Assembly: GCA_900547125.1 (NCBI GenBank)
Contig: URFU01000001.1
Span: 7,731 to 71,730 of the forward strand
Source: an uncultured Collinsella sp.
GTDB lineage: Bacteria > Actinomycetota > Coriobacteriia > Coriobacteriales > Coriobacteriaceae
Length of the DNA: 64,000 nt
Direction of reading: 5' to 3'
The position numbers were made by a program, and so were the translations under genes. Shown here piece after piece: positions 15,881-52,508 of this stretch (positions within the stretch are counted from its first letter, which is position 1; each line of letters starts with the position of its first letter). A model generated the notes under the pieces. The model saw only the letters and a program-made list of their open reading frames with translations. It did no database searches and had not been told where the DNA came from.

Positions 15881-15926
15881 TGGCTGGCGGGGTTGCCCGC
15901 TCACACAACCTGTCCCCATTTCTCAG

Positions 15927-15975: not shown

Positions 15976-15990
15976 GGGCTGGTCGGGAGC

Positions 15991-16140
15991 CGTTTGTCTC
16001 GATCTGTAACATCTAGCCGAGTTTTTTGGTCCTAGCTGTTACAGATTGAGACGAACAGGATTGCTCTTTCCGAAGAATCTAAATCTGTAACACGTAGCCC
16101 GCTTTTGACCGTCTACCTGTTACAAATCGAGACAAACGGA
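15991..16140. repeat. Palindromic hairpin element family A, two tandem units (A-loop and B-loop types).
   Basis: Unit 1 is cgtttgtctcgatctgtaaca[tctagccgagttttttggtcctagc]tgttacagattgagacgaacag. Unit 2 is aatctgtaaca[cgtagcccgcttttgaccgtctacc]tgttacaaatcgagacaaacg. Confidence 0.85.
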
Positions 16141-16147
16141 GTAGGAC

Positions 16148-17176: not shown

Positions 17177-17235
17177 GCCTTCCACGCCAACCTGCTTCCC
17201 AACTATTCCCCGCGCCCATGGCGCATCGTACATAC

Positions 17236-17410
17236 ATTGATAACGTGCTCATGATACCCGAGCCATATACCACAACATGAAAACTTCTGTCAATCAAAAC
17301 CGCTTACCGAACAAATACAACCGTTCGCGGCTGTTTGAAGTTGTTTTGTTTCTATACATCCCAGCCGGATGTTAACGTGCTCATTGTCAAATGTTCACGT
17401 GCTCATTTTG
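17236..17410. promoter_or_regulatory. Three TGTTAACGTGCTCAT-type operator candidates.
   Basis: tgataacgtgctcatga (17240), gatgttaacgtgctcattg (17368) and aaatgttcacgtgctcatt (17389). Confidence 0.5.
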
Positions 17411-17520
17411 GTTCTAATCATTTTAAGATAGTGTTTATCGGGCTTTTTCACCGCTAAACGCTAACCAGGGAGCCTCCTGAGCGCAAACGCACAATATCGA
17501 ACAGCGAGACGAGAGGGTGT

Positions 17521-18969
17521 ATGCATATGTCTTTGCTAAACCGCGTACAGCAGCTGCCGAAGGGCTTTGTTTGGGGCGCCGCAACCGCCGCGTACCAAAC
17601 GGAAGGTTCCACGAAGGTGGCAGGCAAGGGTAAGACCATGTGGGACGATTACCTTGTCGCCCAGGGTCGCTTTTTGCCCGACCCGGCCAGTGATTTCTAC
17701 AACCGCTACGAGGAGGATATCCGCCTATCAGCCGAGCATGGACTCAACGCCATCCGTGTGTCCATCGCCTGGACCCGCATCTTCCCTAACGGCGACGATG
17801 CCGCGCCCCTCGCCGAGGGCGTTAAGCACTACCACGAGTTGTTCGCCTGCTGCAAAAAGTATGGCGTCGAGCCCTATGTGTCCCTGCATCACTTTGACTC
17901 CCCCGCCGCCCTGTTCAACCAGGGCGACTGGCTCAACCGCAAGACCGTCGACGCCTATGTGCGCTATGCCGAGTTCTGCTTCCGTGAGTTCCGCGAGGTC
18001 AAGAATTGGTTCACCATCAACGAGCTCATCAGCCTCTCGCACTCCCAATACATCCAAGGCAACTTCCCGCCCAACCATCACTTTGATGTGACGAGCGGCA
18101 TCCAGAGCCAGCACAACGAGCTCGTTGCCCACGCCCGCGCCGTCAACCTGTATAAGGATCTGGACGAGACCGAGCACCTGGGCGGCCGCATTGGCATGGT
18201 CAACGTCCTGACGCCGGCATATCCTGCCACCGACTCGCCCGCCGACCAGCACGCCGCCGACCTGTACAACGCCTTCTACACCGACTTCATCATGGACGGC
18301 GCCTTCCTGGGTCACTACTCCGCGCACACCCTCTCACTCATCAACGAGATTCTGCGCGCCAACAACGCCACACTTACGGTTGAGGACGGCGACATGGAGG
18401 AGCTCGCCAAGGCGGCGCCCCGCAACGATATGTTCGGCCTCAACTACTATCAGTCGGCGTTTATCGCCGCCTACGATGGCGAGTCCACCAACAGCTTTAA
18501 CGGCACCGGTGACAAGGGCACCTCGTGCTTTAAGTTTAAGGGCGTCGGGCAGCAGGTCGATATGCCGGGTATCCCCACCACCGACTGGGATTGGCTCATC
18601 TACCCGCAAGGCCTCTACGACACGCTCAAGCACATCAGCGCCACCTATCCCAACCTCCCCGTCATCTATATCACCGAAAACGGCCTGGGCCACAAGGACC
18701 CCGAGCCCGACGCAAACGGCATCGTCGCCGATCCCGAGCGCATCGACTTTGTCGACCAGCACATGGAGAAGGTGCTCCAGGCGCGCGCCGAGGGCGTCGA
18801 CGTCCAGGGCTACTTTATCTGGAGCCTGCAGGACCAGTTCTCGTGGGCCAATGGCTATAACAAGCGCTACGGCCTGTTCTACATCGACTTCGACACGCAA
18901 AAACGCTACATCAAGCAGTCGGCACTCTGGTACAAGGAGCTCGCCGACACTATGGCGGACGCGCAGTAG
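17521..18969 (+). CDS. GH1 6-phospho-beta-galactosidase/glucosidase, module 2.
   Basis: GH1 motifs FVWGAATAAYQTEG, SLHHFDSP, YITENG and SWANGY. Alternative start at 17527. Confidence 0.85.
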   Translation: MHMSLLNRVQQLPKGFVWGAATAAYQTEGSTKVAGKGKTMWDDYLVAQGRFLPDPASDFYNRYEEDIRLSAEHGLNAIRVSIAWTRIFPNGDDAAPLAEGVKHYHELFACCKKYGVEPYVSLHHFDSPAALFNQGDWLNRKTVDAYVRYAEFCFREFREVKNWFTINELISLSHSQYIQGNFPPNHHFDVTSGIQSQHNELVAHARAVNLYKDLDETEHLGGRIGMVNVLTPAYPATDSPADQHAADLYNAFYTDFIMDGAFLGHYSAHTLSLINEILRANNATLTVEDGDMEELAKAAPRNDMFGLNYYQSAFIAAYDGESTNSFNGTGDKGTSCFKFKGVGQQVDMPGIPTTDWDWLIYPQGLYDTLKHISATYPNLPVIYITENGLGHKDPEPDANGIVADPERIDFVDQHMEKVLQARAEGVDVQGYFIWSLQDQFSWANGYNKRYGLFYIDFDTQKRYIKQSALWYKELADTMADAQ

Positions 18970-18983
18970 CGCATCGCCTCGCT

Positions 18984-19040
18984 TTCCCCCGAGAGGGGAG
19001 CGGCCCTATGCGATACAAACCCAGCCGCTCCCCTCTCTCT
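18984..19040 (+). other. Intercistronic inverted repeat between bgl2 and IICB2.
   Basis: cccgagaggggagcggc … gccgctcccctctctctggg. Confidence 0.4.
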
Positions 19041-19141
19041 GGGACCGACCCCGCCTGCACCCGGGCTTTTAGCAAGCGGGAGACCATATAGGTTTTCAAC
19101 GTCCATGCCATTAAGATTTCATGCAAAGAGGAGCGTGAACT

Positions 19142-20902
19142 ATGGAATCGATCGTTAAGTTCTTGGAGAAAGGTCAGCCGTACTTCGACAAGGTCTCTAA
19201 GAACATCTACCTTCAGGCCATTAAAGACGGCTTTTTGGCAGCAATGCCCATCATCCTGTCTTCTTCTGTCTTCCTGCTTATTTCGACCCTGCCGGGCGTT
19301 GTCGCCACGGTCGGCGGCTTTACGCTGCCCGACTGGTGGAACGTCGACGTCGTGAACTTCTGCAACAAGGTTTACAACTTCACGATGGGCGTCGTGGGCA
19401 TCATGGTCGCCGGCACCACCGCAAGCGCGCTGACCGGCTCCAAGAACCGCCGCATGCCTGCCGGCAAGGCCATCAACGCCACGAGCACCATGGTCGCCGC
19501 CATGTGCGCTATGCTCATCTTGGCCGTTACCCAGACGAGTGCCAAGATCGACGGCGCCGATGTCTCGGTGTTCTTTACCGACAACATGGGCACCAAGGGC
19601 CTGCTGAGCTCCTTTGTCGCCGCATTTGCCACGGTCAACATCTATGCCTTCTGCATTAAGCGCGACATCACCATCAAGCTGCCCAAAGAAGTCCCCGGCG
19701 CCATCGCCCAGAACTTCCGCGACATCTTCGCCTTCAGCTTCTCCATCCTGTTTGTCGCCGTCATCGACGTTATCTGCCGCACCTGCTTGGCCGTCCCGTT
19801 TGCCAACGTCATCTCCACGCTGGTGAGCCCGCTGTTCGCCGCCGCCGATTCCTACGCCGGCCTCGCCCTCATCTGGTTCATGATCCCGCTGTTCTGGTTC
19901 ATGGGCATCCACGGCCCCTCGGTCGTTAAGCCTGCCCTCAACGCTGCGCTGTTTGGCAACATCACCACCAACCTCGCCACGCTGCAGGCCGGCGGTCACC
20001 CCGCCCTCGCCCTGACCGAGAACTTCGGTAACTACATCGGCGAACTCGGCGGCACCGGCGCCACGTTCATTGTCCCGATCATTTTCCTGCTCTTTATGCG
20101 CTCCAAGCAGCTCAAGGCCGTCGGCAAAGCCTCTGTCGTACCCGTGATGTTCGCCGTCAACGAGCCGCTGCTGTTCGCCGCGCCCATCATCCTCAACCCG
20201 TACTTCCTGATCCCGTTCCTGTTTGCCCCCGTGGCCAACGTCCTCATTGGTAAGTTCTTCATCGACTTTTTGGGCATGAACGGCTTTATCTATGCCATGC
20301 CGTGGGCACTCCCCGGACCGATCGGCACCTTCATCGACACCAACTTCCAGCCGATTTCTCTGGTCCTGGTTGTCGTCCTGCTGGTCGTTGACTTCTTGAT
20401 CTACTACCCGTTCTGCAAGGCCTACGACAACGTCCTGTGCAAGCAGGAGGCCGAGACCCTGGCCGAAGAAGAGGCCGAGGAGACCAAGGCCGTCAAGACC
20501 GCTGCCGCCCCCGCCGTTGAGGCTCCCGTTGTCGAGACCGCTTCTGCCACTGAGGCCTCCGCAGCTCCGTCCGCCCTTAAGGGCAAGGATCTGAGGGTTC
20601 TGGTTCTGTGCGCTGGCGCCGGCACCTCTGCACTGCTCGCCAACGCGCTTAAGGAAGGCGCCGACGAGCTGGGCATCGACATTACCGCCAACGCCGGTGC
20701 CTACGGCAGCCACTACGCCATCATGGACCAGTACAACGTCATCGTCCTGGCTCCGCAGGTTCGCACCTATTACAACGAGATGAAGGCCGACACCGACCGC
20801 CTGGGCATCACGCTGCTGTCGCCCAAGGGCAAACAGTACATCGACCTCACTAAGGATCCCAAGGGTGCCGTCGCCTGGATCGAGGAAAACCTCGAGGCAT
20901 AA
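19142..20902 (+). CDS. PTS lactose-family IICB, module 2.
   Basis: Paralog of 12599..14374 (MESIVKFLEKGQPYFDKVSKNIYLQAIKDGF…) with a C-terminal IIB domain (RVLVLCAGAGTSALLA). RBS AGGAG. Confidence 0.9.
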   Translation: MESIVKFLEKGQPYFDKVSKNIYLQAIKDGFLAAMPIILSSSVFLLISTLPGVVATVGGFTLPDWWNVDVVNFCNKVYNFTMGVVGIMVAGTTASALTGSKNRRMPAGKAINATSTMVAAMCAMLILAVTQTSAKIDGADVSVFFTDNMGTKGLLSSFVAAFATVNIYAFCIKRDITIKLPKEVPGAIAQNFRDIFAFSFSILFVAVIDVICRTCLAVPFANVISTLVSPLFAAADSYAGLALIWFMIPLFWFMGIHGPSVVKPALNAALFGNITTNLATLQAGGHPALALTENFGNYIGELGGTGATFIVPIIFLLFMRSKQLKAVGKASVVPVMFAVNEPLLFAAPIILNPYFLIPFLFAPVANVLIGKFFIDFLGMNGFIYAMPWALPGPIGTFIDTNFQPISLVLVVVLLVVDFLIYYPFCKAYDNVLCKQEAETLAEEEAEETKAVKTAAAPAVEAPVVETASATEASAAPSALKGKDLRVLVLCAGAGTSALLANALKEGADELGIDITANAGAYGSHYAIMDQYNVIVLAPQVRTYYNEMKADTDRLGITLLSPKGKQYIDLTKDPKGAVAWIEENLEA

Positions 20903-20937
20903 TACGCTGACGCCACCTGCCGCTCGCAGAAAATAAT

Positions 20938-20978
20938 GGCCCGCGCATCGATGTGTGATGCGCGGGCCATTTTGTTTA
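20938..20978 (+). terminator. Rho-independent terminator after IICB2.
   Basis: ggcccgcgcatc gatgtgt gatgcgcgggcc followed by attttgttt. Confidence 0.65.
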
Positions 20979-20993
20979 GACCGCACCCGTCCT

Positions 20994-21064
20994 CCTGTTC
21001 ATCTCAATCTGTAACATCTAGCCGAGTTTTCGGGTCCCACCTGTTACAGATTGAGATGAACAGG
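20994..21064. repeat. Palindromic hairpin element family A, single unit.
   Basis: cctgttcatctcaatctgtaaca[tctagccgagttttcgggtcccacc]tgttacagattgagatgaacagg. The arms are perfect over 23 bp. Confidence 0.85.
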
Positions 21065-21074
21065 CCGAGCACGT

Positions 21075-22076
21075 CTACACCCGCAGGTCCTTTACGCTGG
21101 AACGCTCGACCAACACACCCGAGACAAGCGTACGGCTTCTGGAGCTCGGGGCTTCCAGACCTGCGACGACCTCGTTAAGCGCACGGATGCCCAGCTCGCG
21201 GTGGCGAAACTTCACCGACGTCAGAATCGAGTTGGGAATCGTCTTGTAGAGCTCATCGTCGAAGCCGATCACGGACACGTCGTCGGGCACACTCAGACCC
21301 TTGTCACGTAGAGCCATCATCACGCCGTTTGCCATGCAGTCGTTAGCAGCGAGGACCGCCGTACAATCGGGTTTATCGGCAAGCACAAGGCCCGCGGCAT
21401 AGCCACTATCCGCATTCCAATCGCCTTGCAGAGGCTCGGGCGGCTCAATGCCACGCGCCTCGAGTGCCGCACGCCAACCTTTCATACGACACTGGCTCGA
21501 CAGCGACTCTTTCTTACCAGAGACGAAGTATACGTTCTTGTGCCCACGATTTAAGAAGTACTCGCACGCCATGCGCGCACCACCCTCTTGATCGTCACTA
21601 ACGGTAGAGCAGGTAGGATGCTCCATCGGCGTGATAATCACCGTCTTGAGGCCCTTCGGTGCCTCAAAGGTATCAAAGTCATCGACCATCTGACGCAGGT
21701 TGAAGATCATGCCATCAACAGGCAGTTGCGACATCCTACGCGCCGCTTCGGCAAGGGTCATCTTCTCCCCCGCGCGCTTCTTAATCATCGTAAGCGCAAA
21801 ACCGCGTTCTTCGGCGGCATCGGCGATACCGTCAATCATGTCCACGGCACCGCCCGACAAGTGGAACAGCACCACGCCGATGCACCCGTAACGACCCAAT
21901 TTGAGCGAACGCGCGGCAAAGTTGGTTCGAAACCCGAGCGCCTCCATTGCGGAATGAACCTTATCGCGTGTCGACTCTCGCACGCTATCGGGCTCGTTGA
22001 TCACACGCGAAACCGTCTTGAGAGAAACACCCGCAGCAATCGCCACGTCGTTCATTGAGACATTTTTCTTGTCCAT
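21075..22076 (-). CDS. LacI-family repressor, module 3.
   Basis: HTH MNDVAIAAGVSLKTVSRVINE. Likely start at MDKKNVS (cat 22074-22076). The ORF track extends to 22154. Confidence 0.8.
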   Translation of the reverse strand: MDKKNVSMNDVAIAAGVSLKTVSRVINEPDSVRESTRDKVHSAMEALGFRTNFAARSLKLGRYGCIGVVLFHLSGGAVDMIDGIADAAEERGFALTMIKKRAGEKMTLAEAARRMSQLPVDGMIFNLRQMVDDFDTFEAPKGLKTVIITPMEHPTCSTVSDDQEGGARMACEYFLNRGHKNVYFVSGKKESLSSQCRMKGWRAALEARGIEPPEPLQGDWNADSGYAAGLVLADKPDCTAVLAANDCMANGVMMALRDKGLSVPDDVSVIGFDDELYKTIPNSILTSVKFRHRELGIRALNEVVAGLEAPSSRSRTLVSGVLVERSSVKDLRV

Positions 22077-22215
22077 CGTTGCCACTACTTCTCCAGTCGG
22101 TTTTGCATCGCTTGCTTTTTGCGTTCTAGCATACACTACCTGCCCGACTGACAAATCAGCCGTTTATCGGACGATATCGACCGTTCACCTGTAAATCCTT
22201 GTTGCTCTTCCAAAA

Positions 22216-22262
22216 ATGTCTTACGTTGTCATTAACGAAATGACAACGTTGTCATTTCGCAA
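22216..22262. promoter_or_regulatory. Perfect palindromic operator TGACAACGTTGTCA plus a flanking half-site.
   Basis: tgacaacgttgtca at 22241-22254, and ttacgttgtca at 22221-22231. Confidence 0.6.
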
Positions 22263-22360
22263 TGCCTTCCTTAATCAGGAAGGTTTCCGGGCAGTCCTGA
22301 CCATCCATCGACGACCAGTTCCATCCACATGCATCGCGCATCAAGTAGCAAAGGAGCTTT

Positions 22361-24139
22361 ATGGACGCCATCGTAAAGATGCTCGAAAAGCATCAGCCGT
22401 TCTTTGAGAAGATCTCGAGGAACATCTACCTCCAGGCTATTAAGGACGGATTCCTTGGGTGCATGCCCATCGTCCTCACCTCTTCGATCTTTCTGCTGAT
22501 CGCCACGCTTCCCGGCGTGGTCGGCATCACGCTGCCCCAGCCGCTCATCGACTGGTGCAACAAGCTGTACAACTTCACCATGGGCGTCATGGGCATCATG
22601 GTTGCCGGCACCACCGCCAAGAACTTTACGGCTTCCATGAACCGTCGCATGCCCGCCGGCAAGGTGCTCAACGACGGCTCCACCATGGTTGCCGCCCAGT
22701 GCAGCATGCTGCTGCTCGCCGTTACGCAGTTCACCACCAAGTTCAACGGCTCCGAGCTTTCTGTCTTCGATTGCACCAGCATGGGTACGCGCGGTCTGTT
22801 CTCGGCCTATATCGCCGCGTTCATTACCGTGTGGGTCTATAAGTACTGCGTCTCGCGCGATCTGACCATTAAGCTGCCCAAGGAGGTTCCGGGCGCCATC
22901 GCACAGAACTTCCGCGACATCATCCCCTTCGGTGGCGCTGTCATCATTTGCGGCATCATCGATGTGGTTGTGCGCAACCTCATGGGCGTTCCGTTCTCCG
23001 AGCTGCTTATCAAACTGCTCTCCCCGCTCTTCACTGCGGCAGAGACCTACCCCGGACTCATCCTTATTCAGGCGGCCACCGCGTTCTTCTGGTTCATCGG
23101 CGTCCACGGCCCCTCGATTGTCCAGCCGGGCATCGACCCCATCCGTCTTGCCAACCAGGCCGAGAACCTGCAGGTTCTGCTGGCAGGCGGCCACCCCGCA
23201 CACTCCCTCACCTTTAACATGTCGCTCGTGGGTGAGTTCGGCGGCACCGGCGCCACGTTCATCGTGCCGCTTCTGCTGATTCTCTTTATGAAGTCCAAGC
23301 AGCTCAAAGCCGTCGGTAAGGCCTCGATTGTTCCTGTTGCCTTCGCCGTCAACGAACCGCTGCTCTTTGGCGCGCCGATGATCCTTAACCCTTACATGCT
23401 CATCCCCTTTGTTGCCGCCGGCTGCGTCAACGTAAGCGTTGCCAAGTTCTTTATCGACAATGTGGGCATGAACGGCTTCTCCTTCGTGGTGCCTTGGGCC
23501 ACCCCTGCCCCCATCGGCATCTTCATCACCACGAACTTCCAGCTTATCGCCCTGGTATTTGTTGCAATCATCATCTTGCTGGACGCCATCATCTACCTGC
23601 CGTTCTTGAAGGCATACGATAAGCTGCTCTGCGACCAGGAGGCCGAGCGCGCCGCCGAGCTGGGTCTCGAGTCCGATGGTGCCGCTGCCATCGCCGCCAA
23701 CGCCCCTGCGCCCGCTGTCGAGCAGACCACCGCTTCCGTCGAGACGACCGCTGCCGCCGCCGGCAGCGAGCCTGTCGCCGATCAGCCCGAGCCCGCTGCC
23801 GATGCATCCGCCAAGAAGGATGTCGACGGCCTGAAGGTCCTCGTCCTGTGCGCCGGCGCCGGCACCTCTGCCATGCTTGCCAATGCCATCAAGGAAGGTG
23901 CCGCGCAGACCGGAGAGAACATCGCTTCCTCCGCAGGCGCCTATGGCCAGCACACTGCCATCATGGATCAGTACGATGTCATCGTGCTCGCCCCGCAGGT
24001 TCGTAGCTACTACAACGACATGAAGGCCGACACCGATCGTCTGGGCATTAAGCTGCTCGCTCCGCGCGGCAAGGAATATATCGACCTTACTCGCGACCCC
24101 GCTGGCGCCATCAAGTGGCTCCGCGAGAACCTCGACTAG
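22361..24139 (+). CDS. PTS lactose-family IICB, module 3.
   Basis: MDAIVKMLEKHQPFFEKISRNIYLQAIKDGF…, C-terminal IIB (LKVLVLCAGAGTSAMLA). RBS AAGGAG. Confidence 0.9.
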   Translation: MDAIVKMLEKHQPFFEKISRNIYLQAIKDGFLGCMPIVLTSSIFLLIATLPGVVGITLPQPLIDWCNKLYNFTMGVMGIMVAGTTAKNFTASMNRRMPAGKVLNDGSTMVAAQCSMLLLAVTQFTTKFNGSELSVFDCTSMGTRGLFSAYIAAFITVWVYKYCVSRDLTIKLPKEVPGAIAQNFRDIIPFGGAVIICGIIDVVVRNLMGVPFSELLIKLLSPLFTAAETYPGLILIQAATAFFWFIGVHGPSIVQPGIDPIRLANQAENLQVLLAGGHPAHSLTFNMSLVGEFGGTGATFIVPLLLILFMKSKQLKAVGKASIVPVAFAVNEPLLFGAPMILNPYMLIPFVAAGCVNVSVAKFFIDNVGMNGFSFVVPWATPAPIGIFITTNFQLIALVFVAIIILLDAIIYLPFLKAYDKLLCDQEAERAAELGLESDGAAAIAANAPAPAVEQTTASVETTAAAAGSEPVADQPEPAADASAKKDVDGLKVLVLCAGAGTSAMLANAIKEGAAQTGENIASSAGAYGQHTAIMDQYDVIVLAPQVRSYYNDMKADTDRLGIKLLAPRGKEYIDLTRDPAGAIKWLRENLD

Positions 24140-24214
24140 TTCCTCCCTCTGTTGGTGCCCGGATCCCCAGTTCGGGCACCTCTCCCTATTCGTATCCCAC
24201 AGAAAGGATGACTC

Positions 24215-25636
24215 ATGACCAACCCCATGCAGTTCCCCGACGGCTTTGTGTTTGGCGGCGCCACCGCCGCTTACCAGGTTGAGGGCGAGACCCGCACGCA
24301 CGGCAAGGGCAAAGTGCCCTGGGACGATTTCCTGGCTGCTCAGGGTCGCTTCTCCCCCGACCCCGCAAGCGATTTCTACAACAAGTATCCGGTCGATATC
24401 GACTTGTGCCAGCGCTTTGGCATCAACGGTATTCGCGTCTCCATCGCTTGGAGCCGTATCTTCCCCAGTGGCACCGGCGAGATTAACCCCGAGGGCGTCG
24501 CTTTCTATCACGAGCTTTTCGCCACCTGCAACAAAGCTGGCGTTATCCCCTATGTCACGCTCGATCACTTTGACACGCCCGAGGCCTTCTACCAGGACGG
24601 CGGCGAGGGCTTCCTGACGCGCACGACCATCGACGCCTTCGTCGAGTACGCCAAGTTCTGCTTTGCCGAGTTCACCGAGGTCAAGCACTGGTTTACCTTT
24701 AACGAGATTCCCGCAACCGCCGAGGGCAGCTTTATCGTCGGCAACTGGCCGCACGGCGAGAAGTACCGCCTGGACAAGGCCTTCCAGCTCATGCACAACA
24801 TGATGGTGGCCCACGCCAAGGCTGTCGTCGCCTTCCATGAGGGCGGCTTTGAGGGCGAGATCGGCATTGTCCAGAACCTGGAGCCCAAGTATCCCCTCGA
24901 CCCCAACAACGCCGCCGACTGCGAGGCAGCTCGCATGGCCGACGTCATCAACAACCGCTGGGTACTCGACGCCACCTTCCGCGGCCACTATGCAGCCGAC
25001 ACCATGGAGGCTGCGACCAAGCTGGCCCATATCGCCGGCGGCGAGCTCGACGTCCGCGACGAGGACATCGCCGCGCTGACCGCCGCGCTCCCCTACAACG
25101 ATTGCCTGGGCGTCAACACCTACAAGTGCCAGTTCCTGCGTGCCGCCGAGGGCGAAAACGACATCAACCACAATGGCACCGGCGACAAGGGCTCCTCGCG
25201 CTGGTTCCTCAAGGGCGTGGGCGAGTCATGCGTGCGCGAAGGCGTACCCACCACCGATTGGGACTGGATCATCTATCCCGAGGGCCTCTACGACCTGCTG
25301 CTCCGCATTAAGAACGATTACCCCAACTACAAGAAGATCTACATCACCGAGAACGGCATGGGCTATAAGGACGACTTCGAGGATGGCTTTATCGACGACG
25401 CCCCTCGCATCGACTACATGCGTCAGCATCTCGCATGGATCCTCAAGGCAATCGACGGCGGCGTAAACGTCGACGGTTACTTTGTGTGGTCGCTGCAGGA
25501 CCAGTTCTCCTGGACCAACGGCTATAACAAGCGTTACGGCCTGTTCTACATCGACTTTGAGACCCAGAAGCGCTACCCCAAGGCGAGCGCGTACTGGTAC
25601 AAGAACGTCGCGGAGACCGGCCTGCTTATGGCCTAA
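24215..25636 (+). CDS. GH1 6-phospho-beta-galactosidase, module 3.
   Basis: Very close to lacG1: FVFGGATAAYQVEGETRTHGKGKV, YITENGMGYKDD, SWTNGYNKRYGLFYIDFETQKRYPK. Confidence 0.85.
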   Translation: MTNPMQFPDGFVFGGATAAYQVEGETRTHGKGKVPWDDFLAAQGRFSPDPASDFYNKYPVDIDLCQRFGINGIRVSIAWSRIFPSGTGEINPEGVAFYHELFATCNKAGVIPYVTLDHFDTPEAFYQDGGEGFLTRTTIDAFVEYAKFCFAEFTEVKHWFTFNEIPATAEGSFIVGNWPHGEKYRLDKAFQLMHNMMVAHAKAVVAFHEGGFEGEIGIVQNLEPKYPLDPNNAADCEAARMADVINNRWVLDATFRGHYAADTMEAATKLAHIAGGELDVRDEDIAALTAALPYNDCLGVNTYKCQFLRAAEGENDINHNGTGDKGSSRWFLKGVGESCVREGVPTTDWDWIIYPEGLYDLLLRIKNDYPNYKKIYITENGMGYKDDFEDGFIDDAPRIDYMRQHLAWILKAIDGGVNVDGYFVWSLQDQFSWTNGYNKRYGLFYIDFETQKRYPKASAYWYKNVAETGLLMA

Positions 25637-25658
25637 CTTTTGCCGCATACCCCCTGTC

Positions 25659-25708
25659 GGCCGCATGCGAATCCCTCCACGGGTTCGTATGCGGCCTTTT
25701 TTGTTTTT
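25659..25708 (+). terminator. Rho-independent terminator after bgl3.
   Basis: ggccgcatgcgaa…ttcgtatgcggcc followed by ttttttgttttt. Confidence 0.65.
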
Positions 25709-25725
25709 GGTGAGCCCGTGCGGGC

Positions 25726-25870
25726 CGTTTGTCTCGATCTGTAACATCTAGCCAAGTATTTCGGCCCTAGCTGTTACAGATCAAGACAAACAGAGCGCCC
25801 GAGCAGAAATATCTCAATCTGTAACACGTAGCCCACTTTTAACCGTCTACCTGTTACAGATCAAGACAAT
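25726..25870. repeat. Palindromic hairpin element family A, two tandem units.
   Basis: ccgtttgtctcgatctgtaaca[tctagccaagtatttcggccctagc]tgttacagatcaagacaaacag, then atctcaatctgtaaca[cgtagcccacttttaaccgtctacc]tgttacagatcaagacaat. Confidence 0.85.
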
Positions 25871-25921
25871 AAGATAGTCAAATCCAAACTTTCCAAGCAG
25901 TTATGAAGCATGGTTTCTAGT

Positions 25922-25996
25922 TTTCGGTATCACGAACATGCTTTCGGTGTCATTTAATGGTATTATGATATCGAAAGTATGTTCGTGATACCGAAA
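25922..25996. promoter_or_regulatory. Dyad-symmetric promoter/operator of the Fic gene.
   Basis: 18-bp perfect inverted repeat tttcggtatcacgaacat / atgttcgtgataccgaaa. It brackets a nested imperfect inverted repeat and a TATTAT(GAT) -10-like box. GAAAGGAG RBS follows. Confidence 0.55.
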
Positions 25997-26004
25997 GGAG
26001 CCGC

Positions 26005-27237
26005 ATGCGCCAGTTCGATTACACCACAGTCCCAGCGGAACTCGAGGCAACTCCAATCACCAACCTCCTCCTCTCGATACGCGAGCATAAAGGCCGACAG
26101 CTTGCTCTGAGTCAAGTTAAACCCGAACTTCTATCGTCACTTATGGAGGAAGCTAAGATCCAAAGCACCCAATCCTCCAACGGACTTGAAGGAATTGTTA
26201 CCACCCAAAAAAGACTCAAAGCAATCATGGCGTATTCCGCCAAGCCAAGCTCCCGCGCAGAGGAAGAAATCGCTGGATACCGAGATGTGCTGTCGCTTAT
26301 TCACGAGCAACACGATTCCATTCCCGTAACGCCATCGGTCATTTTGCAGTTGCATCGTGACCTCATGGCGCACACGGCAATCTCGTATGGGGGCCATTGG
26401 AAAGATAGCGATAACGAAATCATCTCCATCGACAATCAAGGCAATCGATTTGTGCGCTTTAGGCCGCCTTCGGCCCTAGCAACCCCCGGACTTATCGAAG
26501 AAGCCTGTCGGTCCCTCAACGACGCCTTATCTCGTCAAGTTTGCGACCCCCTCCTTATATCATTCCGCTTCATCTTCGATTTTGTCAGCATTCATCCCTT
26601 CAACGATGGCAATGGCAGGATGAGCCGGCTCCTTACAACGCTGCTACTCGAAAAGACTGGATACGACGTTGCGCGTTACATCAGCATCGAACGACTTATT
26701 GAAGACAACAAGGCGCTCTACTACAACGCCCTCGCTGCAAGCTCCACTGGATGGAATGAAAATCAAAACACCGAAGTACCCTTTATCCGTTTCATGCTCG
26801 GAACAACCCTGGCCGCCTACCGACAGCTCGAGCAGCGTACCTTAATTGAATCAAGCACTCGTCCCATGTCGAAGCAAGCGCGCATCGCTGTTCTATTTCA
26901 ACAGAGACCCGGCGTCATTAAGAAATCCGACATCCGATCCAACTGCCCCGATATCAGCGAGGTTACCGTTAAACGAACCCTCGGTCAGCTTGTTAGTTGC
27001 AGCGCAATCGAAAAAACAGGAGCGGGTCGTTCGACGGGCTACATACTCAAAGACGTCCATGCTCTAGAACTATTCTTGCAATCCACAATACCCGATAGCG
27101 AGGCCGCAATAACAAAAGAGGCTCCAAAGGATAAGCTCCTTGAACGTGTAAACCACGCCGAGGATGAAAGCAGAGAGGGGCTCTATGAAGACTACGATTC
27201 ATTCTCAAGGGACATAAAGACGAAATACGGAGTCTAG
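26005..27237 (+). CDS. Fic-family protein (class II, with N-terminal inhibitory helix), putative AMPylase, with a C-terminal winged-helix-like domain.
   Basis: Fic motif HPFNDGNGRMSRLL. Upstream inhibitory motif S-x-x-x-E-G (SSNGLEGI). GC is visibly lower than in neighbouring genes. Confidence 0.85.
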   Translation: MRQFDYTTVPAELEATPITNLLLSIREHKGRQLALSQVKPELLSSLMEEAKIQSTQSSNGLEGIVTTQKRLKAIMAYSAKPSSRAEEEIAGYRDVLSLIHEQHDSIPVTPSVILQLHRDLMAHTAISYGGHWKDSDNEIISIDNQGNRFVRFRPPSALATPGLIEEACRSLNDALSRQVCDPLLISFRFIFDFVSIHPFNDGNGRMSRLLTTLLLEKTGYDVARYISIERLIEDNKALYYNALAASSTGWNENQNTEVPFIRFMLGTTLAAYRQLEQRTLIESSTRPMSKQARIAVLFQQRPGVIKKSDIRSNCPDISEVTVKRTLGQLVSCSAIEKTGAGRSTGYILKDVHALELFLQSTIPDSEAAITKEAPKDKLLERVNHAEDESREGLYEDYDSFSRDIKTKYGV

Positions 27238-27278
27238 TCATATCCCAGAATAGCCTCATCCTTGTTGCCCAAAGTTAT

Positions 27279-27686
27279 TTACGCGTCATTGTGAAGCGAT
27301 AACCCCTGCGCCGGCAGGGGGGGGCAGAAGTATCGCCTGCCGATCTTGCTGGAGTCGGCGATGAGGTAGCGCGTATCGGCCTTGCTAAAGGCGAGCTGCT
27401 GGATGCGGCCCTCGTCCATATTGGACGTAGATACGTCACCGTCCAAGATGCCGTTGGCACCGATAAACGCCGCGTCAATGCCCAGCGCACGCAGGGTATC
27501 CTCGGCCGTGGGTCCCACAAAGGCGGCGGTGCGGCGACGGTACATGCCGCCTACCAGGCACAGGTCGCAGTCTTCGCGCGTCTCGAGCAGGTTAATCACC
27601 GAGAGCGAATTGGTCACATAGATGGAAGTCAGCTTGTCGGTGACTCGGAGAGAGCGCCAATGCGATCTCACGTCGGTTGCGCTCAT
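27279..27686 (-). pseudogene. Truncated duplicate of the DeoR-family regulator 31818..32609 (C-terminal sugar-binding domain only; no HTH).
   Basis: Protein VTNSLSVINLLETREDCDLCLVGGMYRRRTAAFVGPTAEDTLRALGIDAAFIGANGILDGDVSTSNMDEGRIQQLAFSKADTRYLIADSSKIG is nearly identical to the 31818 regulator. By eye, ~90% nucleotide identity over ~270 bp (27361-27625 vs 31951-32215). Confidence 0.7.
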
Positions 27687-27781
27687 TGTCTCAACTTGAT
27701 ACTCAACGAAATACGGCCCCGCAGCTCAATAAGCTGCGGGGCCCTACTATACACCGACGAATCAACGACGGAGTGCATCCA

Positions 27782-29476
27782 CTATTTGGCCAGCTCCTGA
27801 ACGATCCAGTCAATTGCGCCTTCGGGATCGTTGGTAAGGTCGATATACTCCTTGCCCCTTGTGGTGAGCAGTTTAATTCCAAGGCGATCGGTATCGGCCT
27901 TCATAGCGTCATAGTACATGCGTGCCTGGGGTGCCAGAACAATCACGTTGTACTGATCCATCGTCTCATAGTGGCTTCCGTACGCACCGGACTGAGAAAC
28001 CAGATCGATACCCTTAGCAGCGGCACCTTCGCGAAGAGCATTTGCCAAGAGAGTCGAAGTGCCAGCACCCTGGCAAAGCACAAGCACGCGGATCTGCTCC
28101 GCCTTGTCCTTTACCGCCTCGAGAGCTTTTGCGACATTTTCCTGTGCGGCAATAGCATCTGCATCCGAGGTTCCTGCAGTCTCCTTTGCAGACTCTTCCA
28201 AACAAAGCTGATGGTCATACGCCTTGCAGAACGGATAGTAAATCACAAAGTCAACGACCAACAGCACTGCCATCAATACGAGAGAACGCAGATCGAGACC
28301 CGTGGTGAGGAATGCACCGATTGGGCCGGGAAGCGCCCACGGCATGGTATACATGGGGGCGTTCATTCCAATGACGTCAATGAAAAATTTACCGATAATG
28401 GCGTTGACCATAGGAGCCACTAGGAAGGGCACGAACATATAGGGATTGAGAACAATCGGCATACCGAAGATAACGGGCTCGTTAACTCCAAAAATCACCG
28501 GGATAATCGATGCCTTGCCCATGGCTTTAAGCTGCTTGGAGCGCATAAACATGATCAGGATAATAGGAACGATGAACGTGCAGCCAGAACCGCCCAGACC
28601 GCCGATGAAGCTTGTAAAGTCCTGCGTGAGAGCAATTGACGGGTGTCCACCTGCTTGGAAAACCTCAAGATTGGTAACGGTATTGCCGTAGAGCGCAGCA
28701 TTGATCGGACTCATGACAACCGAAGCACCGTGGATACCCATAAATTGGAAAAGCGCGACCGCGCCTTCGATAAGCGCCATGCCAGGATAGGTATCGACCG
28801 CGGAGAACAGCGGCGAGATGAGAGCGGATACCAAATTGGCGAACGGCACAGCAAGCAGCTTGCGGCTCGCAAGATCGATAAAAGCGCACGCAAGGATCGA
28901 AAACCCAAATGCAAAGATATCGCGAAAACTCTGCGCAATAGAGCCAGGGACCTCTTTGGGAAGCTTGATCGTCACATTATGGCTAATGCACACCTTATAG
29001 ATATTAACGGTCAAGAATGCGGCTACGAACGCAGCGAGAAAACCCTTGGTTCCCATATAGCCGGTTTCAAAAACAGATGTATCTGCTCCGACAATCGAGA
29101 CAACATCGTTCGTCACCGATAGCAAGAGCATGCCGCACATGGCACAAACCATGCACGAGGTGGGGTTGAGAGATTTACCCGAAGGCATGCGACGGTTCAT
29201 CGACATGGCAAGTGAGCTCGCCGTGGTGCCGGCCACCATAATGCCAAGAAGTCCCATGGTATATGCATAGATTTTATTGAAGAAATCCAGCACCTCAGAC
29301 GGAAGCGTGATGCCTACATAGGCAGGGAGCGTCGAAAGAAGAAGGAACAGGCTCGAGAACAGCACAATTGGCATATTCGAGAGAAAGCCATCCTTAATCG
29401 CCACCAGATAAATGTTCCTCGAGATTTTGTCGAAGAGGGGCTGGTGTTTTTCAAGGAATTTGACGATAGCGTCCAT
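27782..29476 (-). CDS. PTS lactose-family IICB, fourth and more divergent paralog.
   Basis: MDAIVKFLEKHQPLFDKISRNIYLVAIKDGF…, C-terminal IIB (RVLVLCQGAGTSTLLA). Start at cat 29474-29476 with an AAAGGA RBS. Lower GC than modules 1-3. Confidence 0.85.
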   Translation of the reverse strand: MDAIVKFLEKHQPLFDKISRNIYLVAIKDGFLSNMPIVLFSSLFLLLSTLPAYVGITLPSEVLDFFNKIYAYTMGLLGIMVAGTTASSLAMSMNRRMPSGKSLNPTSCMVCAMCGMLLLSVTNDVVSIVGADTSVFETGYMGTKGFLAAFVAAFLTVNIYKVCISHNVTIKLPKEVPGSIAQSFRDIFAFGFSILACAFIDLASRKLLAVPFANLVSALISPLFSAVDTYPGMALIEGAVALFQFMGIHGASVVMSPINAALYGNTVTNLEVFQAGGHPSIALTQDFTSFIGGLGGSGCTFIVPIILIMFMRSKQLKAMGKASIIPVIFGVNEPVIFGMPIVLNPYMFVPFLVAPMVNAIIGKFFIDVIGMNAPMYTMPWALPGPIGAFLTTGLDLRSLVLMAVLLVVDFVIYYPFCKAYDHQLCLEESAKETAGTSDADAIAAQENVAKALEAVKDKAEQIRVLVLCQGAGTSTLLANALREGAAAKGIDLVSQSGAYGSHYETMDQYNVIVLAPQARMYYDAMKADTDRLGIKLLTTRGKEYIDLTNDPEGAIDWIVQELAK

Positions 29477-29655
29477 AACACATCCTTTCATGATTCCCGG
29501 GCACACAACGATTTATCCGGACTCAACCGTCGTCGTCCCCGTTTGTATCCACTTATGTAAGTGAATACGTTCTTGTGCGAAATGTAATATCATTTGCGCG
29601 ATTTGTCATAACCAATTCTTTTTCCGCTTTGTCGATATGTCAAGAATTCAAATAC

Positions 29656-47931: not shown

Positions 47932-48057
47932 ATCAGTTACTCCTTGTTAGGAAACATAGTCCGCAATAGAATACGCCCGACAGAGCGCCGGGCGTATTGA
48001 TTCTTAGGTTATACGCAAACACTTAAGTACTATTTAGGCATTTGCAGCGTGCATTCC

Positions 48058-49143
48058 TTAGGCCAGGTGCGCGATAACGGCATCGGCAAAGGCCTGAGTG
48101 CCCACAGCGCCCTCGACGGAGCCGGTCTGGGCACGACGCACGTCACCGGTAACCTGCTCGCCCTCGTCGAGCGTGGCAGATACCGCAGCGCGGATACGAT
48201 TGGCCGCATCGTTCTCGCCCAGGTGATCGAGCATCATCGCAGCAGAGAGGATCTCGGCCGTGGGGTTGGCGATATCCTGGCCGGCGATATCGGGCGCGGA
48301 GCCGTGCGTTGCCTCGAAGATTGCGCAGTCGGCACCGATGTTGGAGCCGGGGGCCATCCCTAAGCCGCCCACCAGGCCGGCGCACAAGTCACTCACGATG
48401 TCGCCGTACAGGTTGGGCAGCACCAGGACATCGAAGTCGTTGGGGTTCTGGACCAGGCCCATGCAGGTGGCGTCGACGATCTTGTCGTTGAACTCGATAT
48501 CAGGATAGTTGGCGGCCACCTCGCGCGCCACGCGCAGGAACAGGCCGTCGGTCGCCTTCATGATGTTGGCCTTGTGCACGGCCGTCACCTTTTTGCGGCC
48601 GCAGCGGCGGGCATACTCAAAGGCATACTCCACAATGCGGCGGCTCTTGGCGATAGAGATCGGCTTGATCGAGATCGCGGAATCGACGGCGAAGGTCTTT
48701 TGGCCCGAGCGCTCGACAAGCTGCGAGAGCTCCTCGACCTCGACAGCACCCTCATCGAACTCGATGCCGGCGTAGAGGTCTTCAGTGTTCTCGCGCACGA
48801 TGACCAGGTCGACGTCACGGAAGCGCGAGCCGTCGCCCGGCTGCGACAGGCAGGGGCGCACGCAGGCGTACAGGTCGAAGTGCTTGCGCAGGGCCACGTT
48901 GACGCTGCGGAAACCCGTGCCGACCGGCGTGGTGATGGGACCCTTGATGGCGACCTTGGTCTCGGCGACCGCATCGAGCACGTGCTGGGGCAGCGGCGTG
49001 CCAAACTCGTCCATGACGCCGGCACCGGCCTCCTGGACATTCCAATTGATCTGGACACCGGTGGCCTCGACCACGCGGCGCATGGCCTGCGTAATCTCGG
49101 GACCAATACCGTCACCGGGAATCAGGACTACATCGTGCGCCAT
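48058..49143 (-). CDS. Isocitrate/isopropylmalate dehydrogenase-family enzyme (NAD-dependent isocitrate dehydrogenase-like).
   Basis: [18 protein letters not shown]…, [10 protein letters not shown], ~360 aa. Confidence 0.8.
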
Positions 49144-49863: not shown

Positions 49864-50292
49864 CTATTTCTTAGCGTGCTTGCCAGCACCCTTGCTGTCA
49901 TCGGTGACCGAGATGAGCTGTCGGTCGGCAGCGCCATTACGACGCGCACGGCGGCGTTCCTCGGCATCGCCCGCGTCGGCGGCTGCGCGGTGTGCCTTGT
50001 TGACGTTAAAGACCTCGTCGTGCTTGCGCCACGGACCGACGGACTCGCCAAAGCTCATCTTAAGGCCGGCGATAAAGCCGCCGAGCCAGCCGATCGGCGC
50101 AAACTGCACCAGCGGGAACAGCGAGAACACCCAGGTCAGCAGGACGACTGCCGCAGCTCCCGCAAAGTTGGCAATCCAGTAGTCGCGCTTGGTGATGACG
50201 CGCTTTTCGCACGCCCACTGGCCGCACAAAAAGCCGATGTAGATCGCGAAGAGAAAGAGCGCCAGCGCAAGCACCACGAACGTCCAGCTCAT
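49864..50292 (-). CDS. Small hypothetical membrane protein.
   Basis: Three hydrophobic helices. Start placed at MSWTF (cat 50290-50292), just after the upstream stop. Confidence 0.45.
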   Translation of the reverse strand: MSWTFVVLALALFLFAIYIGFLCGQWACEKRVITKRDYWIANFAGAAAVVLLTWVFSLFPLVQFAPIGWLGGFIAGLKMSFGESVGPWRKHDEVFNVNKAHRAAADAGDAEERRRARRNGAADRQLISVTDDSKGAGKHAKK

Positions 50293-50297
50293 GGGCG

Positions 50298-51377
50298 CTA
50301 CTCCCCGTGATGGTGGCCGCAGCAGCACTCGTGGCCGTCGTCATGACCGTGACCGCCGCAGCACTCGTGGTCCTCGCCATGGTGGTGTCCACAACCGCAC
50401 TCGTGGTCGTCGCCATGCTCGCCGCAACCGCAGCCTTCCTCGTGAGCACCGTGCTCCTCGGGACGATACTGCGACCAGTCCAGACCGGCGGCGATGGCAT
50501 CGGCCTCCTCCTTATAGAGGACCGTGACGGCCTGGGTGCCCAGCTTGGCGCCACCGATGGCATCGAGCATGTCGTAAAGCGTAAAGGCCACGTCGGCGCC
50601 GGGCAGCGCAAGCTCGCGGTCGTCGGCATAGGCGAGCGCCAAGCGCAGGTCCTTAATGAAGTGCTCGACCATAAAGCCGGGCTTGTAGTCGCCGTCGAGC
50701 GCCTTGGGCGCCAGGCTCTCCATGGCACCGGACTTGCCGGTACCGCCCAGAATCATCTGACGGGTCTTCTCAAGATCAAGGCCGCTCAGCTCGGCAAATG
50801 CCATGGCGTCTGCCATGCCGACCATGCAGGCGCCCAGCGACACCTGGTTGGCGAGCTTGGCAGCCTGGCCCTTGCCGGCGCCGTCGAAGCAGCAGATGGT
50901 TGCCGCAAAGGTGGAAAGGATGTCGCGGACCGGCGCGATGTCGTTCTCGGTGGCGCCCACGATAGCCGTGAGCGTGCCGGCGATGGCACCCGACTCGCCG
51001 CCGGTGACGGGACAGTCAAACGCCATGCGGCCGGAAACCTGGGCGGCCTCGGCAATGTCGCGCGCCAGCTCAGGCGAGCTCGTGGTGAGGTCGATCAAGA
51101 CCGCGCCGGGCTTAGTGCACGCGAGCAGGCCGTCGCCTGCCAGGTAGAGCTCCTCGACCTCGGAGGGATAACCCACCATGGTAAAGACGACGTCGGCGTT
51201 CGCCGCGGCATCTGCCGGCGTATCGGCCCAGACGGCACCGCGCTCGATAAGCGCGGCAGCCTTGGACTTGGTGCGGTTGTTGACCGTGACGGGATAGCCA
51301 GCGTCCAGAATGTGGCCGGCAATGGGGGCACCCATAATTCCGGTGCCGATAAATGCGACAGAGAGCTTGTTTGCCAT
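50298..51377 (-). CDS. NAD(P)-binding beta-hydroxyacid dehydrogenase (3-hydroxyisobutyrate dehydrogenase family) with a His/Cys-rich C-terminal tail.
   Basis: Rossmann AFIGTGIMGAPIA. Start at cat 51375-51377 with an AAAGGAAAGG RBS. The C-terminal ~50 aa read HEEGCGCGEHGDDHECGCGHHHGEDHECCGGHGHDDGHECCCGHHHGE. Confidence 0.8.
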   Translation of the reverse strand: MANKLSVAFIGTGIMGAPIAGHILDAGYPVTVNNRTKSKAAALIERGAVWADTPADAAANADVVFTMVGYPSEVEELYLAGDGLLACTKPGAVLIDLTTSSPELARDIAEAAQVSGRMAFDCPVTGGESGAIAGTLTAIVGATENDIAPVRDILSTFAATICCFDGAGKGQAAKLANQVSLGACMVGMADAMAFAELSGLDLEKTRQMILGGTGKSGAMESLAPKALDGDYKPGFMVEHFIKDLRLALAYADDRELALPGADVAFTLYDMLDAIGGAKLGTQAVTVLYKEEADAIAAGLDWSQYRPEEHGAHEEGCGCGEHGDDHECGCGHHHGEDHECCGGHGHDDGHECCCGHHHGE

Positions 51378-51475: not shown

Positions 51476-52432
51476 CTACTGCCCGCGCACGCGGCGAGCG
51501 ATGCGGTCGGAAAGCGAGGCTTTCTCGGCGCGGTTCTTGCCCCAAAACGCGCAGGCCACCATGCCGGGGCCCACGTGCGAGCCGATGGTGGGGCCCACGG
51601 AGCCGCGAATGATCGTGACGTCGGCGCAGCCCTCCTCCTTGCGGATGGCGGCTTCGAGCCAGTCGCCGTCCTTTTCGGCATCGGCCGTCATGATGGCGAT
51701 GGGCATGGTGCGGTCGGGCACGTAGTTCTCGCGGAACGACTTGAGGATGGACTTGAGCGCCTTCTTGCGGCCGCGGTTGACGCCGATCAGCGACAGCGAG
51801 CCGGCCAGGTCGTAGGAGAGCTCGGGCTTGACATCGAGCTTTGCCGTGAGCTGCGCCGCCGCGGGCGGAATGCGGCCGCCAGCAGCCAGTGCGTCGAAGC
51901 TCTCGAGCGTAAAGTAGCCGTGGACGTAGGTCTTTGCCTCGTTTGCCCAATCGACCAGCTGCTTGGCGGTCAGTCCCGCCGAACGCTGGCGCACGGCCTC
52001 GAGCGCCAAGAGCGCGCCAGTCGCGCAGGGCAGAGCGTTGTCGACCACGTACAGCTCAAAGTTGGGATACTCGGCGCGCACGGCATCTGCCGCCTGGCAC
52101 GCGGAGTTGTAGCTCGACGACAGCGCCGAGGTAAAGCACAGGTAGACCGTGGGCGTGCCCTCTTTGGCGCACTCGGTAAAGAACTCGATATAGCGACCGA
52201 GCGACACAGCCGAGGTGGACACGCGGGCGCCGGCGCGCATGCGGTCGTAGAACTCCTTAGGGCTCATGCTCGACCAGATATCGTCCGTGCGCTCCTCGCC
52301 ATCGATAATGAAGGGGAAACCCAGGATATCGACATCGAGGTTCGCGGCGACCTCGGGGCTAAAGTCGCAGCAGGTATCGACGACGTTGCTGCATCTGTTC
52401 GAATGACCGGTAGATGCGGCCTTGTCCATCAA
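51476..52432 (-). CDS. DegV-family fatty-acid-binding protein.
   Basis: Typical DegV N-terminal domain; ~318 aa. Confidence 0.75.
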   Translation of the reverse strand: MMDKAASTGHSNRCSNVVDTCCDFSPEVAANLDVDILGFPFIIDGEERTDDIWSSMSPKEFYDRMRAGARVSTSAVSLGRYIEFFTECAKEGTPTVYLCFTSALSSSYNSACQAADAVRAEYPNFELYVVDNALPCATGALLALEAVRQRSAGLTAKQLVDWANEAKTYVHGYFTLESFDALAAGGRIPPAAAQLTAKLDVKPELSYDLAGSLSLIGVNRGRKKALKSILKSFRENYVPDRTMPIAIMTADAEKDGDWLEAAIRKEEGCADVTIIRGSVGPTIGSHVGPGMVACAFWGKNRAEKASLSDRIARRVRGQ

Positions 52433-52508
52433 AGCGACTCCTTACGTAAAAAGGCGGCCACCCGCATGGGATGGCCGCCAACCGTTAACTCATGCAAGTT
52501 AACGTATT

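Follow-up and report, generated by a model that had tools for sequence, protein, structure and literature searches.

A histidine- and cysteine-rich repeat tail resembling that of SlyD on a beta-hydroxyacid dehydrogenase of Collinsella, a candidate metal-binding extension

The C-terminal tail of the peptidyl-prolyl isomerase (PPIase) SlyD is unstructured and rich in His, Cys, Asp and Glu; it varies from one SlyD to another and takes up to 7 Ni(II), and the binding of Ni(II) to it reversibly inhibits the PPIase activity (PMC7055735). SlyD also supplies nickel to HypB (PMC7055735, PMC3856676). In Helicobacter pylori, the GroES protein HspA stores nickel on a His/Cys-rich extension, whose Cys-Cys pairs are anchoring sites (PMC3856676). 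About 40% of the COG0523 proteins have His-rich regions, and the metal-binding low-complexity inserts of the G3E GTPases have been read as a sign of metallochaperone capacity (PMC2770081). Here we describe a tail of similar composition on a beta-hydroxyacid dehydrogenase, which is encoded in 64,000 nucleotides (nt) of DNA from an uncultured Collinsella sp. (assembly GCA_900547125.1, contig URFU01000001.1, positions 7,731 to 71,730). This whole stretch is called the window, all window coordinates are positions within it, and the gene lies on its minus strand. We consider, with moderate confidence, that the tail is a disordered and portable multi-metal-binding module of the SlyD type on a new carrier, where it would act as a metal buffer or reservoir. 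The carrier would be new, and the kind of feature is established, namely His/Cys-rich metal-binding extensions on housekeeping proteins. The literature search returned nothing relevant on Collinsella or on a hydroxyisobutyrate dehydrogenase with a histidine-rich tail.

The dehydrogenase is encoded by a single uninterrupted open reading frame (ORF) of 359 amino acids (aa), from an ATG at 51377 (MANKLSV start) to a TAG at 50298-50300, as established by ORF calling and translation. An earlier sequence-only reading, made by a model, had placed the protein in the 3-hydroxyisobutyrate dehydrogenase (HIBADH) family, and the Pfam scan agrees: PF03446 and PF14833 make up the two-domain architecture of the HIBADH / tartronate semialdehyde reductase family. 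Residues 1-290 thus have both domains, in full, of the beta-hydroxyacid dehydrogenase family (3-hydroxyisobutyrate dehydrogenase, tartronate semialdehyde reductase, L-serine dehydrogenase). The Rossmann domain has the GxGxxG motif as GTGIMG (residues 11-16), invariant in 35/35 Collinsella sequences. In the PF14833 domain, K174, which from established knowledge of the family we take to be the catalytic lysine, is invariant in the same 35-sequence alignment, and its segment GQAAKLANQ aligns with GQAMKLVNQ of 3W6U, the closest solved structure (E 1.2e-58). In an AlphaFold2 model built from the 35 sequences, the enzyme core is confident, with a predicted local distance difference test score (pLDDT) mostly above 90. 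Judged by its sequence, the protein is probably an active and ordinary-looking NAD(P)-dependent beta-hydroxyacid dehydrogenase. It reached no NCBIfam equivalog cut-off, the best model being TIGR01505 (200.2 against a cut-off of 340.75), with TIGR01692 also below (173.3 against 291.6); the curated equivalog models therefore assign it neither as tartronate semialdehyde reductase nor as HIBADH, L-threonate dehydrogenase or sulfolactaldehyde reductase. The public record simply names it 'NAD(P)-dependent oxidoreductase'.

What sets this protein apart is its end. The 21 solved relatives, with lengths of 287-320 aa, all cease to align at query residues 255-294; residues beyond about 295 are therefore an addition to the enzyme. 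A comparable tail was found on no solved or profiled member of the class (PDB relatives, NCBIfam models). The addition comprises a linker (residues 286-311), in which AAGLDWS (A296-S302) is invariant in the 35 Collinsella sequences, and four 12-residue units, in order HEEGCGCGEHGD, DHECGCGHHHGE, DHECCGGHGHDD and GHECCCGHHHGE, with the consensus D-H-E-C-C/G-G/C-G-H-x-H-G/D-E/D. By direct count, the 48 residues of the tail are 13 His, 9 Cys, 13 Gly and 13 Asp or Glu, and no other residue. The sequence-only reading had described a His/Cys/Asp-rich end of about 50 residues, unusual for this enzyme class; the string it quoted is exactly the last 48 residues, the span it gave, 50298-50460, takes in residues 307-359 and the stop codon, read on the minus strand, and every detail of its description was correct. 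In the underlying DNA, Tandem Repeats Finder places a tandem repeat of 36-nt period at 50313-50417 (score 126; 2.9 copies with 79% matches), and a second repeat search likewise found three copies at 36-nt spacing. When the whole 64 kb was translated in six frames, this tail was the sole 30-residue stretch with at least 11 His plus Cys in a plausible coding frame. In the AlphaFold2 model, the predicted helix stops near residue 296, pLDDT falls below 50 from residue 290, and residues 300-359 (pLDDT 29-41) have no secondary structure and sit away from any structured contact. The model thus predicts a disordered tail, in line with what is reported for SlyD.

Such a repetitive extension might have come from a frameshift, a mis-assembly or a sequencing error, in which case the true protein would end near residue 300. 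A few database entries are indeed frameshifted inside the tract (read-through forms of 438-439 aa) or chimeric with a CobW C-terminal domain, showing that the tract does provoke assembly errors. For the window protein we give this explanation practically no credence. Its ORF is continuous, the exact 359-aa protein was found on 29 independent contigs of public assemblies (NCBI, ENA, Logan), 18,899 sequences fall in its 90% cluster, and thousands of member sequences and every Collinsella species examined hold the tail in frame. The cluster sizes, the homologue set and the 29 contigs together refute an artefact. A member of a sister cluster, WP_271740272.1, is recorded as 'NAD(P)-binding domain-containing protein [Collinsella aerofaciens]'. 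Together with the other named homologues, this places the source of the window in C. aerofaciens or very close to it.

The homologue set was made of the best 120 of 2,047 matches, all with at least 67% identity, and those with a named source were all Collinsella (C. tanakaei, C. intestinalis and Collinsella spp.). Had the tail been an artefact, orthologues should end about 50 aa earlier, as the sequence-only reading had pointed out; instead, 102 of these best 120 homologues (67-99% identity) have an AAGLDW[ST] anchor followed by a tail rich in His and Cys. The anchor is followed by 44-89 residues, with a pooled composition of 26% His, 21.5% Gly, 15% Cys, 15% Glu and 11% Asp, and with repeated motifs among which DHECCGGHGH is the commonest (36 times), before DHECCHGEGH (20) and DHECGCGHHH (16). 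In the species at about 70% identity (loci L001 and L003), codons and unit number differ, and the reading frame and motif are kept. Two of the best 120, P0019 and P0117, have a tail less rich in His and Cys, and the remaining non-standard entries are frameshifted, truncated or chimeric, nearly all of them clusters of 1-6 members. An intact enzyme thus runs in frame into a tail that is conserved throughout Collinsella and polymorphic in unit number. That composition and motif are kept across Collinsella homologues with differing codons suggests that the tail is under selection.

The polymorphism is regular; a slippage-prone variable region was one possibility that the sequence-only reading had put forward. 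C. aerofaciens-level alleles, taken as the clusters with at least 90% identity around the window protein, are 335, 347, 359 and 383 aa long, that is 2, 3, 4 and 6 units, always in frame, and two distinct 3-unit alleles (P0143, P0160) each lack a different unit. All changes in tract length are multiples of 36 nt, and therefore the tract is variable in copy number and its variation is constrained in frame. Tandemly repeated DNA and a polymorphic unit number are also consistent with a neutral low-complexity expansion, in which a slippage-prone 36-nt repeat drifts without function, and the degraded tail of P0117 fits such drift. We nevertheless find neutral drift very improbable. Composition and the HEC..GH motif are kept in more than 100 sequence clusters with differing codons and with core identity down to 67%, and the peptide motif recurs in distant phyla with very different codon usage. 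Moreover, the common alleles are all in frame and the frameshifted or truncated forms are rare (1-6 members versus 18,899 and 2,088), the one truncated form with 30 members coming from an error-prone assembly. The latter, P0023 (291 aa), had been considered as a natural loss of the tail and was rejected on this ground, since it stems from a hybrid assembly that also splits the neighbouring DegV gene.

Two other kinds of aberrant entry deserve mention. Variants of 438-441 aa (P0005, P0006, P0009, P0010, P0022, P0025, P0049) leave the frame at differing points of the tail and then follow a 222-aa shadow ORF (window 50060-50728, minus strand) that overlaps the downstream gene; because each of their clusters has only 1-6 members, we take them most likely as sequencing or assembly indels and not as a programmed event. 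Apparent fusions of the dehydrogenase to a CobW_C domain, P0016 (L091:305-1516) and P0062, were rejected as real fusions, as the junction lies inside the tract. Both lie on short contigs. That of P0016 has a length of 3.2 kb at a coverage of 1.5x, and beyond the apparent fusion come a cobW/DUF1980_C gene and FeoA, the usual neighbours of COG0523 genes. Both entries are probably chimeras that arose in assembly because a Collinsella COG0523 gene has a similar tract. Indeed, because these contigs join inside the tract, a Collinsella COG0523 protein appears to carry a similar His/Cys tract.

The tail most resembles that of SlyD. The full sequence of E. coli SlyD was confirmed against PDB 2KFW, and its tail (residues ~147-196), which reads ...HDHDGCCGGHGHDHGHEHGGEGCCGGKGNGGCGCH, is like the Collinsella tail an unstructured C-terminal segment rich in His, Cys, Asp, Glu and Gly; both contain the 8-mer CCGGHGHD. 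SlyD-type FKBP proteins of several taxa have HECCGGH repeats identical to the Collinsella unit, and tail length varies between organisms in SlyD as it does in Collinsella. The protein itself is not a SlyD, and only its tail is SlyD-like: the carrier is a PF03446 plus PF14833 protein, and the Pfam scan gave no FKBP_C match, whereas SlyD is an FKBP prolyl isomerase with an inserted chaperone domain (IF). Furthermore, the Collinsella tail is a regular 12-residue tandem array, and the link of SlyD to HypB and hydrogenase has no counterpart in the 64-kb window, which holds no hyp genes.

The distribution of the motif was measured in a census of one genome per species (185,579 species) for HECCGGH encoded in low-GC codons, a restriction that kept the many Collinsella species from swamping the result; carrier families were assigned by Pfam scan for 30 representatives and by BLAST for the others. 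The census gave 87 loci. SlyD-type FKBP_C proteins account for 49 (Campylobacter, Arcobacteraceae, Sulfurospirillum, Proteus, Vibrio, Actinobacillus, Bacteroidales), so the motif is found mainly on SlyD-type proteins. The other carriers are DUF1292 proteins (11 loci, with the tract N-terminal in Clostridium and C-terminal in Erysipelotrichales), HSDR_N_2-like proteins (5; Paraclostridium, Romboutsia), histidyl-tRNA synthetases with C-terminal tails (4), YlbF-like proteins of Akkermansiaceae (3), COG0523 GTPases with the tract before CobW_C (2; Lachnospiraceae and Erysipelatoclostridium genomes) and one SIMPL protein; 4 loci were assigned to no family and 8 are short, cut or spurious ORFs. The likeness to metal-chaperone tails that the sequence-only reading had put forward is thereby supported, through the 8-mer common to E. 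coli SlyD and through the 49/87 FKBP and 2/87 COG0523 carriers. No beta-hydroxyacid dehydrogenase occurs among the 87 loci, and the tail on this class is as unusual among carriers outside Collinsella as it is among the 21 solved relatives. A tail-only phmmer search of 1.84 billion representatives gave 12 matches, mostly Collinsella fragments, and brought to light two further carriers, P0127 (DUF7309 plus DUF6930) and P0130 (DUF1292).

Some of these carriers are worth a closer look. P0127, a 475-aa protein of a low-GC organism, carries six near-perfect HEC(G/S/C)(C/G)GHHHEDG units internally, at residues ~365-440, so that its cassette is not terminal. The tailed histidyl-tRNA synthetases come from metagenome-assembled genomes (MAGs) of Bacilli (L032:1540-2943, minus strand), Turicibacter (L064:6012-7472, plus strand) and Bacillales (L056:66-506, plus strand), and from one labelled Gammaproteobacteria (L069:3694-5112, plus strand); it is curious that a His-rich tail should sit on the very enzyme that loads histidine onto its tRNA. 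In the DUF1292 proteins, the cassette is N-terminal at seven loci (L008, L014, L024, L046, L050, L061, L063) and C-terminal in others (L028, L057, L062 and P0130). Because its position differs between lineages, these sequences suggest that DUF1292 proteins acquired the cassette independently. As a whole, the census suggests that SlyD-type tails are grafted on housekeeping proteins more widely than the few studied cases, SlyD and HspA, would indicate.

The other known systems are more distant. HspA has a His/Cys-rich C-terminal extension on a housekeeping carrier, but the carrier and lineage differ, its extension is shorter (~27 aa) and non-repetitive, and no sequence match to the Collinsella tail is detectable beyond composition. 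Expression of HspA is moreover controlled by NikR, whereas no regulator site was found upstream of the Collinsella gene in the three species compared. Among the G3E GTPases (COG0523/CobW, HypB, UreG), the HECCGGH motif is present on two COG0523 proteins. There the tract is internal, whereas in the Collinsella dehydrogenase it is terminal and comes without a GTPase domain or GCxCC motif; the window protein has no PF02492 or PF07683 match. The metallothioneins (SmtA/BmtA) are likewise rich in Cys and His, with the Cys-Cys and Cys-x-Cys spacing typical of metal-thiolate clusters. The Collinsella tail differs from them by far more His and acidic residues, and it is not free-standing, is predicted to be disordered and is not zinc-finger-like; the Pfam scan of the whole protein gave only dehydrogenase-type families and no metallothionein match.

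We infer metal binding, the likely metals and a role in storage or buffering from the composition of the tail and from analogy. With about 2 Cys, 3-4 His and 2-4 carboxylates, each 12-residue unit has ligands enough for approximately one soft or borderline ion such as Ni(II), Zn(II), Co(II) or Cu(I). Judging from SlyD, whose tail takes up to 7 Ni(II), and from HspA, a four-unit monomer would hold several ions, and an oligomer a multiple of this. The most likely role would be the cytosolic buffering or storage of such metals with the enzyme as carrier, for which GroES (HspA) in H. pylori and the PPIase SlyD in many bacteria would be precedents, and the stored metal could possibly be handed over to metallochaperones. 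Recombination or slippage between the 36-nt repeats would shift the unit number in frame, and strains would in this way differ in metal capacity. Alternatively, the tail may be regulatory: metal occupancy, or the thiol/disulfide state of its nine cysteines, would switch the activity or oligomeric state of the enzyme, making it a sensor and not a store. The inhibition of the SlyD PPIase by Ni(II) on its tail (PMC7055735) is a precedent, the tail is covalently tied to one enzyme throughout the genus, and the AAGLDWS linker is invariant. However, the module is also carried by unrelated proteins (FKBP, COG0523, DUF1292, histidyl-tRNA synthetase, YlbF-like, SIMPL), which argues for a function independent of the carrier, a range of 2-6 units within a species is hard to square with a tuned allosteric switch, and AlphaFold2 puts the tail away from structured contacts. 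A regulatory tail therefore seems unlikely to us. Storage or buffering is favoured over the rival explanations because the same cassette is found on many unrelated carriers and tolerates 2-6 units.

The genes around the dehydrogenase are conserved (Table 1). Three loci, namely the window, L001 (72% identity) and L003 of C. tanakaei (70%), share the order HPF, DegV, tailed dehydrogenase, ~145-aa membrane protein and 232-aa HEAT-like protein, and an isocitrate-dehydrogenase-like gene comes next in two of the three (window and L001, not L003). The terminator scan found a terminator-like hairpin at 52453-52479 upstream of the DegV gene, which may for this reason be the first of the transcription unit, and another at 47973-47988 after the isocitrate-dehydrogenase-like gene, the last before that hairpin. 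The membrane-protein ATG lies 5 nt past the dehydrogenase stop in the window, and 3-6 nt across the three species. In all three, the final tail codons (GGG GAG, GAG GAG or GCG GAG) provide a GGAG ribosome-binding site, and the stop is TAG (window 50290-50306, minus strand; L001:7051-7068; L003:7093-7107). That tail codons form this site implies that the dehydrogenase and membrane-protein genes would be translationally coupled. The tail ends in Glu in 85/102 homologues, which the GGAG site for the next gene probably explains; the conserved terminal Glu may thus be constrained by translation initiation of that gene as much as by protein function.

Such coupling could be taken as a sign that the tail passes its metal to a dedicated partner, for example the His/Cys-rich COG0523 GTPase of Collinsella, a hydrogenase maturation factor or the downstream membrane protein itself. 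Besides the conserved neighbour that starts 5 nt after the stop and uses the last tail codons as its ribosome-binding site, the supply of nickel from SlyD to HypB and the similar tract that a Collinsella COG0523 protein appears to bear speak for such delivery. On the other hand, the membrane protein has no conserved Cys/His cluster and matches no Pfam or NCBIfam family, and the 64-kb window contains no maturation genes. We regard dedicated delivery as a doubtful alternative. In the 142-aa membrane protein, the motifs IAGLKMxFGESxGPW and FNVN are invariant, and a C-terminal segment is rich in Arg.

Several observations weigh against the buffering tail of SlyD type that we favour. Local alignment of the tail with that of SlyD scores 116, whereas shuffled SlyD tails score 93 +/- 12 and, among 2000 of them, 71 score at least as high; the overall similarity is therefore largely compositional. 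The neighbourhood is of no help either: the Pfam scan and ORF survey of the 64-kb window found no metal transporter, metalloregulator or metallochaperone near the gene, the neighbours (DegV, membrane protein, HEAT-like and isocitrate-dehydrogenase-like) give no hint of metal, and the three-species alignment shows no conserved operator-like sequence upstream of the gene, only the ribosome-binding site. The shared 8-mer is rarer by chance (9 of 2000 shuffles), and we take the match to SlyD as a resemblance and not as proof of common descent. A tail-only search of PDB sequences gave no match even at E<=10, probably owing to composition filtering.

Table 1. Features of the tailed dehydrogenase and of its neighbours, with the basis for each (window positions).
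Feature	Coordinates	Strand	Basis
Tailed beta-hydroxyacid dehydrogenase gene, 359 aa	50298..51377	-	Single ORF; Pfam and NCBIfam matches
NAD(P)-binding Rossmann domain, residues 7-162, including GTGIMG	50892..51359	-	PF03446, E 7.6e-46
HIBADH-family all-alpha C-terminal domain, residues 168-285, including K174 in GQAAKLANQ	50523..50876	-	PF14833, E 2.7e-27
Linker, residues 286-311: conserved AAGLDWS (A296-S302), then variable QYRPEEHGA	50445..50522	-	35-sequence alignment; model
His/Cys-rich tail, residues 312-359, four 12-aa units	50301..50444	-	Translation; 36-nt tandem repeat; motif conservation in homologues; pLDDT
Tail units, each 12 aa	50409-50444, 50373-50408, 50337-50372, 50301-50336	-	Translation
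Last two tail codons, GGG GAG, as GGAG Shine-Dalgarno-like site for next gene	50301..50306	-	
DegV-family gene, upstream	51476..52429	-	PF02645, E 1e-53; TIGR00762 above cut-off; conserved neighbour
Predicted membrane protein, 142 aa, downstream	49864..50292	-	ORF; conserved neighbour in L001 and L003
HEAT-repeat-like protein, 232 aa	49150..49848	-	HEAT_2 and HEAT_EZ matches below Pfam cut-offs; conserved in L001 and L003
Isocitrate-dehydrogenase-like gene (Iso_dh)	48058..49143	-	PF00180, E 6e-107; NCBIfam isocitrate dehydrogenase models best, below cut-offs

Elsewhere in the window, a crude ORF survey noted four long genes at ~12600-29500 with near-identical N-termini (M..IVKFLEKGQPYF...), three of which have next to them, downstream, genes with GH1-like N-termini; regulator genes with LacI-like N-termini are also close by. 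The region looks like an amplified locus for beta-glucoside uptake and hydrolysis.

Collinsella is an abundant gut genus, C. aerofaciens being among the commonest Actinobacteria of the human gut, and to our knowledge very little is known about its handling of transition metals. In practical terms, the protein is expected to co-purify on immobilized metal affinity chromatography resins, and the tract yields mis-assemblies and frameshifted gene calls in metagenomes. The tail is real, appears to be under selection and is polymorphic in a very common gut bacterium, though mechanistically it would come as no surprise. A more far-reaching proposal joins three parts: the dehydrogenase as the principal cytosolic Ni/Zn buffer, a capacity tuned by strain, and a mobile cassette. 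All three together would be true only with a rather low probability. In that case, the dehydrogenase would stand in for a tailed SlyD in Collinsella, the polymorphism of 2-6 units would tune capacity and affect fitness under host-imposed metal limitation or excess, and bacteria would have recruited the HECCGGH 12-mer convergently, as a mobile metal-binding cassette to be grafted on abundant housekeeping proteins (dehydrogenase, histidyl-tRNA synthetase, DUF1292, YlbF). More simply, if the tail binds metal, a metabolic enzyme would add to the cell a store of several ions per subunit, with a strain-dependent capacity, which would be relevant to nutritional immunity, metal supplements and gut exposure to bismuth or nickel.

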